Shown piece by piece: positions 51 through 58,153 of a stretch of DNA of 64,000 nucleotides. Every line of letters begins with the position of its first letter. Position 1 is the stretch's first letter. Location of the stretch: the NCBI GenBank assembly GCA_964016885.1, contig OZ024758.1:21700001-21764000 (forward strand). The letters are read 5' to 3'. This DNA is from Eledone cirrhosa (taxonomy: Eukaryota). The notes under the pieces were generated by a model. The model was not told where the DNA came from. It worked only from the letters and a program-made list of their open reading frames with translations, and ran no database searches. The position numbers were made by a program, and so were the translations under genes.

Positions 51-300
51 AACGAAGAAGGTGTGGTTAGGAACCAGATTGACCGTAACGCACCAGAGTA
101 CTCAATATTTAGGGTAGTAGAGTGGGTAATAGGAAAAGGTTTAACCCCGACGGCAGAGCTCAAGCCGTTTCGACGGTTATTTCTGGACTAAATTAGAATT
201 TTTAACGTGGTAAATAAAAACCACGCTAAAAATTCTGATTTAGTCCAGAAATAGCCGTCGAAACGGCTTGAGCTCTGCCGTCGGGGTTAAACCTTTTCCT
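51..300 (-). mobile_element. (TA)n-embedded fold-back element, family F1 (half-hammerhead, PLE-pLTR-like)
   Basis: Near-perfect inverted arms 131-211/220-300, plus an ~80-nt extension on the left arm only. Flanked by (TA)n. Contains GAAA-cggcttgagctctgccg-TC. Confidence 0.8.
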
Positions 301-1060
301 ATTTATATTTATATATATATTTATATATATATATATTTATATATATATATATTTATATATATATATATTTATATATATATATATATTTATATATATATAT
401 ATATTTATATATATATATATTTATATATATATTTATATATATATATATTTATATATATATATATTTATATATATATATATTTATATATATATATATTTAT
501 ATATATATATATTTATATATATATATATTTATATATATATATATTTATATATATATATATATTTATATATATATATATTTATATATATATATATATATTT
601 ATATATATATATATTTATATATATATATATATATTTATATATATATATATATATTTATATATATATATATATATATTTATATTTATATATATATATTTAT
701 ATTTATATATATATATTTATATATATATATTTATATATATATATATATATTTATTTATATATATATATTTATATTTATATATATATATTTATATATATAT
801 ATATATATTTATATATATATATATATATTTATTTATATATATATATTTATATTTATATATATATATATATATATATTTATATATATATATATATATTTAT
901 ATATATATATATATATATATTTATATATATATATATATATATATTTATATTTATATATATATATATATATTTATATATATATATATATATATATATTTAT
1001 ATATATATATATATATTTATATTTATATATATATATATATATTTATATATATATATAAAT
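301..1060. repeat. (TA)n microsatellite with TTTA interruptions
   Basis: Direct reading; it explains ORF 268..1080. Confidence 0.97.
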
Positions 1061-1387
1061 ACACACACATATGTATTTAAATATAAGTACATACATATAT
1101 GTATACATATATATAAATATATAGATGTACATAGATACATATATATGTATATATATGTATATACGTGTATATATAGATATACAAAGTGTTTGTGTGTGTA
1201 TGTGTGTATTTACATACGTTCTAGTATCTGTTTACCTTTTTCTATGGAAATTTATATTTATAACCAAAACTCTGTACTTTTGGATTCTCATTTTGAGTAA
1301 ACACTGAAGAGAAACATTCAAATATCCATATATATATATATATATATATACATATATATATATATATATATATATATATATATATAT

Positions 1388-1528
1388 CAGATAGGGTGTG
1401 GTAAAGACCTGGTAGACTATAACCCACCAGAGTACACGATACTTGGTGTAGTAGAGTGGGTAATATGAAAAGATTCAGGACCCTGACGGCTGAGCTCCGG
1501 CCGTTTCGACAGCTAGATCCGAAGGGAT
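1388..1528 (-). mobile_element. F1 element, single long arm (subfamily ggatctagctgtcgaaacggccggagctcagccgtc)
   Basis: Homologous to 51-190 and 57944-58080; (TA)n on both sides. Confidence 0.75.
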
Positions 1529-1589
1529 ATATGTATATATATATATATATATATATATAATATATATATATATATATATATATATATGT

Positions 1590-2265
1590 AGGAGGTGAGT
1601 TTTATTGTAGTACAATAAAGCAATGCAGATATCGTATAAGAAGCACTCTACAGTTTGTAGGACTGGAGTATACATAATATATAAGAACTATGCAGAACAA
1701 CTGCTGTCGCGTATGGGACAAATACAGTTGACTGCCGAATCCATAGTAAGGATCAAACCGCCAGACTCTTTCAAAAACGAAAGAGAGGCGGTTTTCCTCT
1801 GTACGGTGGCTATGGTGAAAGAAGTTATATGGTGGACGAGGTTGAGAGGACTGAGGACAGATGCCTTTCTCTCCGGACAACAATTGATTCCATTCTTTAA
1901 GTATCACTTTAGAAGGAGAATCAGGGTGGAGAGAGAGGCACTGCACCCCAGTAAATTTACTGAAAGGTGGGTGAATGAAGCGAAAATGGCCCGAGTGATT
2001 GGGCCTTCTCTGTTTATAAGCCTGTAGGTTGAGGAAGAGAGCAAAAGGAAGAAAGGAGCACTTGCACAACACGCTCCTTGAGTTGAGGGTTGTTCTATCG
2101 ACGGGGTATTAAACAACCCATTTGTGGCGCCTCCCCCCTACTGGGGATTTCGATTGTTGAAATTGTTTGTTTTTATATTTTTTTACACGACTGTATGTAA
2201 AATCCCCGGCATGTCTTTGTATTGTCCCCTTTCTTGTTGCGCCCTTGTGGCTAATAAAGAAATCA
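1590..2265 (+). mobile_element. 5'-truncated L1/Tx1-clade LINE: ORF2 C-terminus and 3' UTR
   Basis: ORF 1623..2027 ends ...AMVKEVIWWTRLRG...FFKYHFRRRIRVERE...KFTERW, a pattern typical of Tx1/L1 ORF2 ends. AATAAA at ~2253. Confidence 0.65.
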
Positions 2266-2346
2266 ATATATAAGAACATATGTTGATATGTTGATTTAAA
2301 ACTGCACTATCCACAAGTGTTTTTTAACCTTCATATAATGTCTTCC

Positions 2347-2417
2347 TGTTTTATCTGATGAGAACACAAATATTATTGCATGATGATATTTGTTTTTGAA
2401 ATGCGCATAATAAAATA
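2347..2417 (+). ncRNA. Minimal type I hammerhead ribozyme motif
   Basis: ttttat-CTGATGA-[gaacacaaatattat...atgatatttgttttt]-GAAA-tgcgca-TA-ataaaa. Stems I and II pair; stem III is palindromic. Predicted cut after 2409. Confidence 0.75.
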
Positions 2418-55117: not shown

Positions 55118-55855
55118 TGAGATGTCAAACCACACTACTAACAATATGCTTATCAGCTTCCATTAAACTTAAGTTATTTCATCAACTAAAATGATTGAGG
55201 ATTTTTATCAAAGGAACCAGGGTTTGTGATGCCTGTGGAGTTTTTACTGGATAGAAAAGAGAGGGGCAATGTTTATCAGCTTCCATTAAACCTAAGTTAT
55301 TTCATCAACTAAAATTATTGAGGATTTTTATCATAGGAACCAGGGTTTGTGTTGTACCAGGGTTTGTGTTGCATGTGGAGTTTTTCCTGGATAGAAAAGA
55401 GAGGAGCAATGCTTATCAGCTTCCATTAAACCTAAGTTATTTCATCAACTGAAATTATTGAATATTTTTATCATAGAGACCAGGGTTTGTGTTGTACCAG
55501 GGTTTGTGTTGCATGTGGAGTTTTTCCTGGGTGGAAAAGAGAAGGACTGAAATATAATGCTGTTTCAAAGGTTATCAATAGATGTCAAACCACACTACTA
55601 ACAATATTCTTATCAGCTTCTATTAAACCTAAATTATTTCATCAACTGAAATACTTGAGTATTTTTATCATAAGGAGCAGTGTTTGTGTTGCATGTGAAG
55701 TTTTTCCTGTGTGGAAGAGAGGGGGGGGGGGGGCAGAAATAAAATAGGTTATCAATAGATCTGAAACCACACTACTAACAATATGCTTATTAACTTCCAT
55801 TAAACCTAAGTTATTTCATCAACTGAAATAGGGACAAGGGTTTGTGTTGTATGCA
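55118..55855 (+). repeat. Diverged ~125-190-bp tandem repeat x ~5
   Basis: ttatcagcttccattaaacctaagttatttcatcaact recurs at ~55150, 55273, 55413, 55610 and 55787. Confidence 0.88.
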
Positions 55856-56029
55856 TCATCATCATCATCATCCTCTTCAACATCATCATCCACTTCATCA
55901 TCATCTTCATCATCATCATCATCATTACCATCTTTAACATCACCCTTCACCCCCACCTCCTCTTCCACCTCCTCCTCATCATCATCATCATCTGCATCAT
56001 CATCATCATTATGATTACTCATACTCAAG

Positions 56030-56220
56030 GGTGGTGGTTTGGCAGTATCGGTAGAGAGTCGGACAACATGCTTTGTAGCACAGAGTTACGCCCCTTTCTG
56101 ATCTGAGTTCAAATCCTGCCGAGGTTGACTTTGCCTTTCATCGTTACGGGGTCGATAAAATAAAGTACCAGTAATGCACTGGGTAATTGCTGGCCTTGTG
56201 CCAAACGTAGAAACAATTAT
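56030..56220 (+). mobile_element. S1 SINE, near full length
   Basis: A-box, B-box and body motifs. Confidence 0.88.
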
Positions 56221-57077
56221 CAGTACTTTCATCACCCCCTCATCACCACCTCCTTCTCTTCCTTCCTCATCCTTCTCCTCCTTATCATCATCATCTCCAT
56301 ATAGACAGCCACATTAACATATTGATTTTGATGTATGCAACATAGATACACAAATTGTTCAAATTGTGTCCATTTTTTACCAAATAACCATGTAACAACA
56401 AACAATTGATAAAGATTCTTCTTGTAGTAACTGAAAGACAGCTTTAGCAGTACTAGGTACATTTTAATAATTTACTGGCAAAATACCGTTTCTTTAAGTA
56501 GAGCAGGAGGTAGGCGGGGTGCTTCAAGAATGCGTAATTAAGGTGTCAGTGGTGTTAGACTTTGCGCCTCTCAGCCAATTTTTGATAGATTGAAAATTAT
56601 GTTCAGTCTGAAGCATTTAATTTTCTGACATATCCAGATGTTGGATACAATTCAGACGAACTGTAAATCGCAAATGTGTCGATATTTCTTGTAAACCTTC
56701 AACACGATTTTCCTCACGTTTCAATAGTAATAAAGTTCGCTTTACTTTAAGTAGTCTGTCAACTCATTTGATATTGAGAAAAGGTCTGTTTAAGGTGATT
56801 GCCGTACAGTCTATGATTTATTCCTCTTTTTTTATAAATACACTCAATCCACACAAGCAGACACTATACTCGAACAAATACACATACACAATCAAACTCA
56901 AACAAATATGTAAAGCAAGCATACACAAAGAAATGCTGAAATGCTTTCTGAATAAAACAAAACCAAACATAAAGTCTGGATGTCAATATATAAAGAGAAT
57001 GCTAGTATCAAGCACAAACCAGGGGTAATCAGTGAACAAGGCTTTATCTTGTTAAAAAGCAAAGATGTTTTAGTATA

Positions 57078-57197
57078 GTGAAGGCGAGTGGCTGAATGGC
57101 TAGAGAATTGGATTCGCAATCGTGAGGTTTTGAGTTTGATTCCCGGACCAAGTGCTCGCTATGTCCTTGAACAAGACACTTTATTTCATGTTGCTCC
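57078..57197 (+). mobile_element. S2 CORE-type SINE 5' part
   Basis: gtgaaggcgagtggctgaatggctagag...gtccttgaacaagacactttattt. Confidence 0.65.
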
Positions 57198-57943
57198 TAC
57201 TACCTAGATCTGCGACAGATAAATAGTATTAGCAACTGGAAAGCCCAATGGAAACATTGTTTCCTCAGTCCTATTTGAGGAGTTCCGCCTCACTCGGTAA
57301 GTGAATGTAATCTGGAACCTTATCGATCGATATATATACATATATATATTATAGTTATATGCATATATACATTATATATATAATATATATATGTATATAT
57401 GTATTTATATATATATATAATATATATGTATATATTATATATATATATATGTATATATTATATATATATATATGTATATATTATATATATATATATGTAT
57501 ATATTATATATATATATATACATATATATTATATATATATATATACATATATATTATATATATATATATATACATATATATTATATATATATATATATAC
57601 ATATATATTATATATATATATATATACATATATATTTTATATATATATATATACATATATATTATATATATATATAGATACATATATATTATATATATAT
57701 ATATATATATATACATATATATTATATATATATACATATATATTATATATATATATATATACATATATATTATATATATACATATATATTATATATATAT
57801 ATATTTATATATTATATATATATTATATATATTATATATATATTATATATATTATATATATATTATATATATTATATATATACATATATATTATATATAT
57901 ATATATACATATATATATATTATATATATATATGTATATATAT

Positions 57944-58153
57944 AACTGAGAGGGTGTGGTAAGATACCAGGTGGACCATAATGCACCAGAGTACTCAATA
58001 CTTAGGGTAGTAAAGTAGGTAATAGTAAAAATAGTCAGGAACCCGACGGCTGAGCCCCGCCCGTTTCGATAGCTAGATTCGAACTAAGGTTTAGTTTGGA
58101 TCTAGCTGTCGAAACGGCCGGAGCTCAGCCGTCGGGGTCTTGACTCTTTTCCT
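57944..58153 (-). mobile_element. F1 fold-back element (second subfamily)
   Basis: Inverted arms centred ~58088; left extension; (TA)n flanks. Confidence 0.8.

Follow-up and report, generated by a model that had tools for sequence, protein, structure and literature searches.

In L1 twin priming, two primers on one RNA give an inversion, and in retroviruses the minus-strand strong-stop DNA is a short complementary DNA (cDNA), primed near the RNA 5' end, that runs off and must jump to continue. Among Penelope-like elements (PLEs), the lizard Penelope PAc cleaves and extends both strands, initiates at two internal RNA sites flanking the tail and works without hammerhead cleavage (PMC11167929). 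The promoter and start of D. virilis Penelope are located within its pseudo-long terminal repeat (pseudo-LTR), with no regeneration mechanism evident (PMC2377424), and an initiator-like motif has been described in a rotifer pseudo-LTR (PMC3846280). Here we analyzed a 64,000-nucleotide window of the Eledone cirrhosa genome (assembly GCA_964016885.1, contig OZ024758.1, positions 21,700,001 to 21,764,000, forward strand), which holds eight copies of a short, mostly hairpin-shaped element in (TA)n repeats, together with related copies elsewhere in the genome.

The hairpins are almost certainly 5'-truncated 3' ends of a ~3-kb Penelope-like retroelement that carries a predicted variant hammerhead ribozyme. 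An earlier note on this DNA had attributed them to target-primed reverse transcription, and rightly so. We assign a probability of about 0.62 to the whole model in which two cDNAs were primed at two sites, both ran off near 18 nt upstream of the ribozyme's GAAA, and the two were joined head to head. Throughout, coordinate zero is the G of GAAA, the predicted hammerhead cut falls between +22 and +23, and arms ending at the nearer or the farther of two fixed 3' ends are called tailless or tailed. The window contains the following arms.

52..218, minus strand: tailed arm, subfamily A, element -47 to +119
220..302, plus strand: tailless arm, subfamily A, -40 to +42; GAAA at 260, GTC cleavage triplet at 280-282
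1388..1523, minus strand: lone tailed arm, subfamily B, 5' end at -16; unique junction in common with the 2678 copy
2683..2819, plus strand: lone tailed arm, subfamily B, 5' end at -16; points away from the 1388 copy
13501..13559, minus strand: tailless arm, subfamily A', -16 to +42; then a short (TA)n filler at the centre
13567..13708, plus strand: tailed arm, subfamily A', about -18/-22 to +119
25171..25313, minus strand: tailed arm, subfamily C, about -18/-22 to +120
25310..25364, plus strand: tailless arm, subfamily C, -12 to +42
38525..38590, minus strand: tailless arm, subfamily A', to about -18, further 5' than its partner; the BLAST boundary at 38593 over-extends into the partner
38585..38668, plus strand: long arm, subfamily A', -14 to +69; tail cut short by (TA)n
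40549..40689, minus strand: tailed arm, subfamily C, -20 to +120
40690..40752, plus strand: tailless arm, subfamily C, -20 to +42
57945..58087, minus strand: tailed arm, subfamily B, from about -20
58088..58153, plus strand: tailless arm, subfamily B, about -20/-23 to +44

The eight copies, all adjoining (TA)n, were present where the earlier note had placed them. A 31-nt degenerate arm motif matched the window 14 times and matched none of 20 sequences simulated with the window's dinucleotide composition. Six of the eight copies are head-to-head pairs with centres that all differ and a short arm ending at TTCCT(AT), as had been reported; the copies at 1388 and 2678 are lone tailed arms. The long arm was said to continue for about 80 nt to GTT; it does extend ~78-80 nt further, except in the 38527 copy, where it is cut short after ~27 nt, and the GTT ending fails at 1388 and 2678, which end otherwise. 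None of the 34 CTGANGA sites in the window lies inside a copy, in line with the original observation. Four subfamilies are represented (51; 13503 and 38527; 25171 and 40549; 1388, 2678 and 57944). The 1388 and 2678 arms point outward from each other and have a 21-nt junction in common, whose only two matches genome-wide are at these copies; a single event or a local duplication probably accounts for both, which leaves seven independent events rather than eight. A symmetric terminal inverted repeat element spanning 1388-2826 was rejected, the junction being unique to the window and the insert unrelated to the element. That insert, ~1.1 kb at 1587-2670, contains a (TA)n run and a 140-aa open frame piece that appears to resemble a LINE C-terminal fragment. 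A tblastn search with PLE homologues found no remnant of an open reading frame (ORF) in the window. Scanning the window against Rfam with an E-value limit of 1 yielded 418 matches, with no hammerhead family among the 150 matches listed; these were nearly all microRNA models on simple repeats or hairpins, every one below its gathering score.

To find the parent, we searched the 3.0-Gb genome with one arm (2,745 first-look candidates, 40 scored). Many arm matches ran 5' through an AT-rich 3' untranslated region (UTR) into GIY-YIG and reverse transcriptase (RT) coding sequence, and six longer stretches held an RT (YRDDGL) followed by a C-terminal GIY-YIG (VIY..YIG), bearing out the Penelope-like origin that the earlier note had suspected. 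Among 30 loci fetched with the RT region for motif counts, 27 had DKT, 19 had a CNC-x5-C linker and 19 had RWR where the Hydra clade has RWK, a conservative change also found in the closest homologue (P0001). The translations of two loci (L034 and L036) showed CNLC-x-E and LN..CKH, with no CCHH seen there. The longest open frame among the 30 loci was 582 aa and no single unbroken ORF was seen; natural copies aligned by tblastn to ~700-aa homologues. At E up to 1e-20, 1,164 of 7,978 candidate proteins were homologous (best identity 51%) and essentially unnamed, and Pfam returned nothing significant for two ORF pieces. In 12 of 18 copies with a start codon, a short 5' UTR and the ORF were immediately preceded by an arm and its tail, a partial tandem of pseudo-LTR type, and the upstream and downstream GAAA were ~3.0 kb apart in four loci (L040, L046, L061, L063). 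The protein motifs and a by-eye comparison, in which 21 of 42 N-terminal residues resembled Hydra-1_Obim (supplement text of PMC8557442), would place the element in the Hydra clade; its hammerhead is unlike the one listed for Hydra-1_Obim, which makes it a separate family. A Naiad identity was rejected because the endonuclease here is C-terminal, and a Helitron or DIRS derivative because long copies run into the PLE ORF. Two related sequences were encountered in the same genome: an open frame of 665 aa belonging to another PLE (RT, C-terminal GIY-YIG and Cys-rich linker) beside a copy of the hairpin-parent family (L036:1865-3859), and fragments ~70% identical to the ORF from a more distant Hydra-type family (L080:1932-2790).

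We next characterized the two ends of the arms in an unbiased sample taken at preset coordinates (1.454 Mb including the window), which yielded 98 arms in 62 loci after contaminated reference parts were filtered out. Of these loci, 23 came from the 264 kb surrounding the window and 39 from the remaining 1.19 Mb, from which we estimate ~80,000-100,000 loci genome-wide. There were two fixed 3' ends, +40/42 and +119/121, ~80 nt apart: 37 arms ended at +42 to +44, 37 at +118 to +121 and 13 elsewhere below +100. Past both fixed ends the element naturally continues with AT, in common with the target, and (TA)n adjoined 37/37 tailless and 40/48 tailed 3' ends, against a background of 18%. The loci comprised 27 head-to-head pairs, 18 solo tailed arms, 6 solo tailless arms and 11 others, with no same-type pair among the 62. 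When search-derived loci were pooled in, 94 of 100 pairs combined a tailed with a tailless arm and 4 were unclear; the 2 apparent tailed-tailed pairs are upstream repeats that continue into the ORF. These results make priming at two sites very probable.

The 5' ends piled up inside the predicted ribozyme. Seventy-five of the 98 arms ended between -3 and -29, a zone picked after seeing the data, with the mode at -18; 17 ended downstream of GAAA and 6 beyond -30, and only 3 reached the 5' hammerhead core. Tailed arms stopped 13.7-fold more often at -1 to -30 than from +90 to 0 (31 stops in 571 nt vs 15 in 3,794 nt, p 3e-17). In a replicate picked by the tail (30 loci, subfamily C only, one being the window's own copy), 20/30 tailed and 18/23 tailless arms ended in the zone. 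Position -18 is the A of TTAGT, and TTA.T was invariant in 40 aligned long arms from all subfamilies. TTAGT resembles an initiator; by eye, no consensus of a downstream promoter element was evident. A G preceded -18 at 7 of 10 junctions whose neighbour was not a partner arm and at 15 of 63 elsewhere (p 0.006, post hoc). At one locus (L191:9310-9586), 137 nt of RT coding sequence from the element itself sit at the hairpin centre, oriented like the long arm, and this captured ORF piece is a template jump from -18. Together, these ends point somewhat better than evenly to run-off at a transcription start inside the ribozyme.

In the model, the element's enzyme would nick both strands of a (TA)n repeat and prime on both, which is likely by analogy with lizard PAc. 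Two cDNAs would be primed at +40/42 and +119/121 of one RNA. The transcript would start at the A of TTAGT, within stem II of the upstream repeat, so that its 5' end would hold only the 3' half of the ribozyme and both priming sites. The hairpins would thus stop inside the predicted ribozyme most likely because the RNA begins there. Priming at the RNA's 5' repeat would give arms of 60 and 140 nt by run-off ~18 nt upstream of GAAA, and priming at the downstream repeat would give the rare long copies. The cDNA ends would then be joined head to head, with short fillers, and a jump from the RNA 5' end would lengthen the upstream repeat.

The same element and the same two primers could also yield the pile-up if the RNA continued upstream and the RT stalled at the long stem II or at a bound element protein. 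The zone is broad and maps onto stem II's 3' strand and onto the distal helix, and the protein-binding region of PAc takes in the hammerhead (PMC11167929), all of which suits a stall. A stall of ~93% per passage should, however, hit the upstream repeats of full-length copies too, yet 7 of 11 of these pass the zone compared with 6 of 81 unbiased arms (p 5e-5), and stems I and III show no comparable pile-up. Moreover, passage is common to both arms of an insertion. In a search-biased pool, both arms went past -63 in 7 of the 9 pairs that had such an arm, and among the first 100 ribozyme core matches listed, 46 formed 23 outward-facing pairs within 5.5 kb, 22 of them with identical 19-mers (hand count). 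These double-long and outward-facing pairs show that passage goes with the insertion as a whole. Stalling that varied with how each RNA is folded would withstand these points; overall, we consider stalling unlikely.

Several observations weigh against run-off at a start at -18. The zone is wide, -17 equals or exceeds -18 in frequency in other sets, and the putative start site is placed from DNA ends. Because TTAG is also base-paired in the distal helix of stem II, a promoter is not the only possible reason for its conservation. The cap-like G is a weak sign, four of its seven junctions (L081, L191, L272, L285) being otherwise explicable. In 2 of the 9 pairs above, only one arm is long and its partner ends within the zone. 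Among ORF-bearing copies, the upstream repeat begins at -4, -14, -30, -31, +40 or, in 7 of 12 cases, beyond -81; these seven need read-through transcripts or a jump, and a start at -18 is therefore not the whole story. Partner arms were 3.0 differences apart compared with 4.3 to other copies of their subfamily (18 pairs, p 0.005), a likeness that suits the model but that gene conversion could also produce. Finally, the model does not account for the outward-facing tailed-tailed pair at 1388 and 2678. A tentative extension of the run-off model, which we think possible rather than probable, is as follows: a start inside its own hammerhead would give the RNA an uncleavable half-ribozyme and both priming sites at its 5' end, the ~100,000 stubs would be strong-stop-like cDNAs whose jump failed, and jumping successfully to the corresponding repeat at the other RNA end, possibly bounded by cleavage at +22, would be the way in which PLEs rebuild the pseudo-LTR and promoter, as in retroviral strand transfer.

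The earlier note had favored a single cDNA folding back, and an antisense template priming itself has been hypothesized for head-to-head structures (PMC3846280); in either form, one molecule would loop back and copy itself as the inverted arm. Many centres are indeed near-symmetric, the arms have variants in common, small templated, snap-back-like fillers occur at some junctions, and the two arms of 8 query-biased pairs end symmetrically between -38 and -52. A copied arm cannot exceed the first, however, yet the tailless arm reached further 5' in 14 of the 27 unbiased pairs (the tailed in 11, with 2 equal), by 30-130 nt in several of them and including cases in which the tailed arm does not begin until +34 to +86. 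Extended pairs, for example -1553 vs -481, are likewise at odds with self-copying, a kilobase-long arm may be tailed or tailless, and there are 6 solo tailless arms, while the fixed +42 end would require an exact stop. Since the tailless arm has its own fixed end and often the greater reach, two separately primed cDNAs fit and a single fold-back does not; we hold self-priming of any kind to be improbable. Amplification as a unit, as a miniature inverted-repeat transposable element (MITE) or another non-autonomous hairpin family, would suit the short, high-copy, inverted-repeat shape and the TA context (target duplications are unreadable inside (TA)n) but is barely credible, as the earlier note had also judged, because the ends are asymmetric, all 36 of 36 centres examined differ, the 1388/2678 junction was not amplified and long copies lead into an ORF encoding RT and GIY-YIG, not a transposase. 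Pair types, reach and the distinct centres together exclude a unit MITE and a simple fold-back. Two kinds of unusual copy were also seen: long A or T runs as centre fillers (L279, L290, L291), and a tailless arm with a ~30-nt stretch (-3 to +28) three times over, suggesting polymerase slippage (L193:7334-7564).

We then examined the ribozyme in longer copies. The arm motif had been read as the 3' half of a type I hammerhead (GAAA, stem III and GUC), and its 5' half was found upstream in longer copies; the expected continuation to cccc-CTGANGA and a PLE ORF held for ACCCC and the ORF, and the core proved to be TTGANAA or CTGANAA instead of CTGANGA. In 84 arms chosen for reaching this region, the 7-mer after ACCCC was TTGAAAA in 34, TTGATAA in 22, TTGACAA in 5 and CTGAGAA in 4, with 10 single variants and 9 unassigned. 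Exact matches to the context pattern genome-wide numbered 5,266 for YTGANAA and 15 for CTGANGA, with 0 in reversed controls; the 15 would roughly equal the point-mutation yield from CTGAGAA copies. The first 100 core matches listed comprised 70 TTGANAA and 30 CTGANAA (hand count). The minimum-energy fold was a type I three-way junction in 2 of 5 long arms (z -2.2 and -2.3), and the other 3, from subfamilies B and C, folded otherwise. In an alignment of 40 of the 84 arms, picked to cover the subfamilies, 94% of 1,000 stem cells were paired, compared with 26-44% in slid controls. Three stem II pairs changed on both sides in 16-18 rows, each as one subfamily-level event; two-sided change affected 5 pairs in all, no better than shuffles (98/500). 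The G10.1-C11.1 pair and the NUH triplet are present, with three helices around the core.

Position 3-8 is U-A in 36 of the 40 aligned arms and C with A in the remainder. The U3-A8 combination has been described as a covariant in the PLE hammerheads of Schistosoma (PMC4209133), and no published activity data on U3-A8 cores were found in the literature searched. C3 and A8 are unable to pair in the normal register, which makes activity doubtful for that subfamily. None of the 98 unbiased arms had a 5' end at the predicted cleavage site (+20 to +26), so GUC cleavage was rejected as the cause of truncation; the tail-picked set had two ambiguous 5' ends, at +20 and +23, among 30. Ribozyme cleavage sets neither arm end. 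A non-LTR retrozyme, defined by tandem repeats that each carry a full type I hammerhead (bioRxiv 10.64898/2026.07.22.740005), was also rejected, since the 62 unbiased loci showed no tandem of full type I hammerheads and so few of their arms reached the 5' core. Separately, the window contains a canonical-looking minimal hammerhead of Penelope type (CTGATGA ... GAAAC) at 53286-53380 on the minus strand, whose minimum-energy fold is not the ribozyme.

Other repeats are also conspicuous in the window. A very abundant SINE-like (short interspersed element-like) repeat of ~180-200 bp, often in short tandem arrays and dense in all sampled stretches too, occurs at 6075-6439, 11845-12232, 17180-17757, 27240-27734, 42830-43203, 52581-53242, 56033-56220 and other sites. 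A dispersed repeat beside (TA)n, in both orientations and with CTGATGA or CTGAAGA, is possibly a further element family (14209-15268, 22217-22818, 41791-41958). A 99-bp tandem repeat of 16.7 copies at 28760-30408 has a length that is a multiple of three and is possibly coding. A (TA)-rich array covers 5.2 kb at 45899-51149, and further arrays of 0.9-2 kb lie at 300, 30804 and 38668.

The hairpins are a known Penelope footprint and no new class; their insertion architecture, tail mechanism, clade and U3-A8 core are each already in print. In the open literature searched, which excluded Repbase, Dfam and subscription journals, we found no paper on the hairpin-parent family or on a pile-up of 5' ends at a transcription start within a ribozyme. 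Regeneration of the pseudo-LTR is stated as an open question in PMC2377424, and the role of PLE hammerheads is called unclear in PMC8557442. On a very large scale, the hairpins document within one genome both priming sites and a sharp 5' limit in the ribozyme, and the run-off model makes one exact prediction, a capped start at the A of TTAGT. The abundant subfamily with the mismatched 3-8 pair may hint that cleavage is dispensable while the fold is kept. Searches with a CUGANGA descriptor would miss the hammerhead core of this highly successful, putatively Hydra-type family. Tens of thousands of near-perfect hairpins of 55-80 bp could also feed RNA editing or small-RNA pathways, if transcribed.

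Compared with L1 twin priming and retroviral strong-stop DNA, the process proposed here differs in using two fixed priming sites, in giving arms that mostly overlap and in being primed by target DNA instead of tRNA. The element resembles the Hydra clade (PMC8557442) in its C-terminal GIY-YIG, DKT, CxCX5C linker, (TA)n target and type I hammerhead near the 3' end, and in having CxxC and CxH around conserved E and N with no CCHH. It departs from that clade in having RWR for RWK, a unit of ~3.0 kb with a long 3' UTR, a stem II region of ~55 nt rather than ~12-25, a 5-bp stem III with a palindromic loop, and a TTGANAA or CTGANAA core where all Hydra rows of File S2 have CTGANGA. Like the U3-A8 minimal hammerhead of the Schistosoma PLE Cercyon (PMC4209133), it combines a U3-A8 core and G10.1-C11.1 with a short stem I, a long stem II, a palindromic loop 3 and motifs close together on opposite strands; unlike it, it has a full 5-bp stem III, and C3 stands with A8 in ~30% of the cores among the matches listed. 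The closest parallel in insertion structure is the canonical PLE unit and PAc (Frangieh et al. 2024, PMC11167929), with a head-to-head inverted truncated copy, a one-sided tail, two fixed ends that match two initiation sites, and ends unrelated to the ribozyme cut. The tail is ~80 nt here versus 30-40 in PAc and lies in the 5' UTR, not in the ORF, and both ends fall on AT common with the target, whereas PAc initiation is described as non-homologous to the cut DNA. Finally, unlike the canonical PLE unit and PAc, most copies here stop inside the ribozyme.

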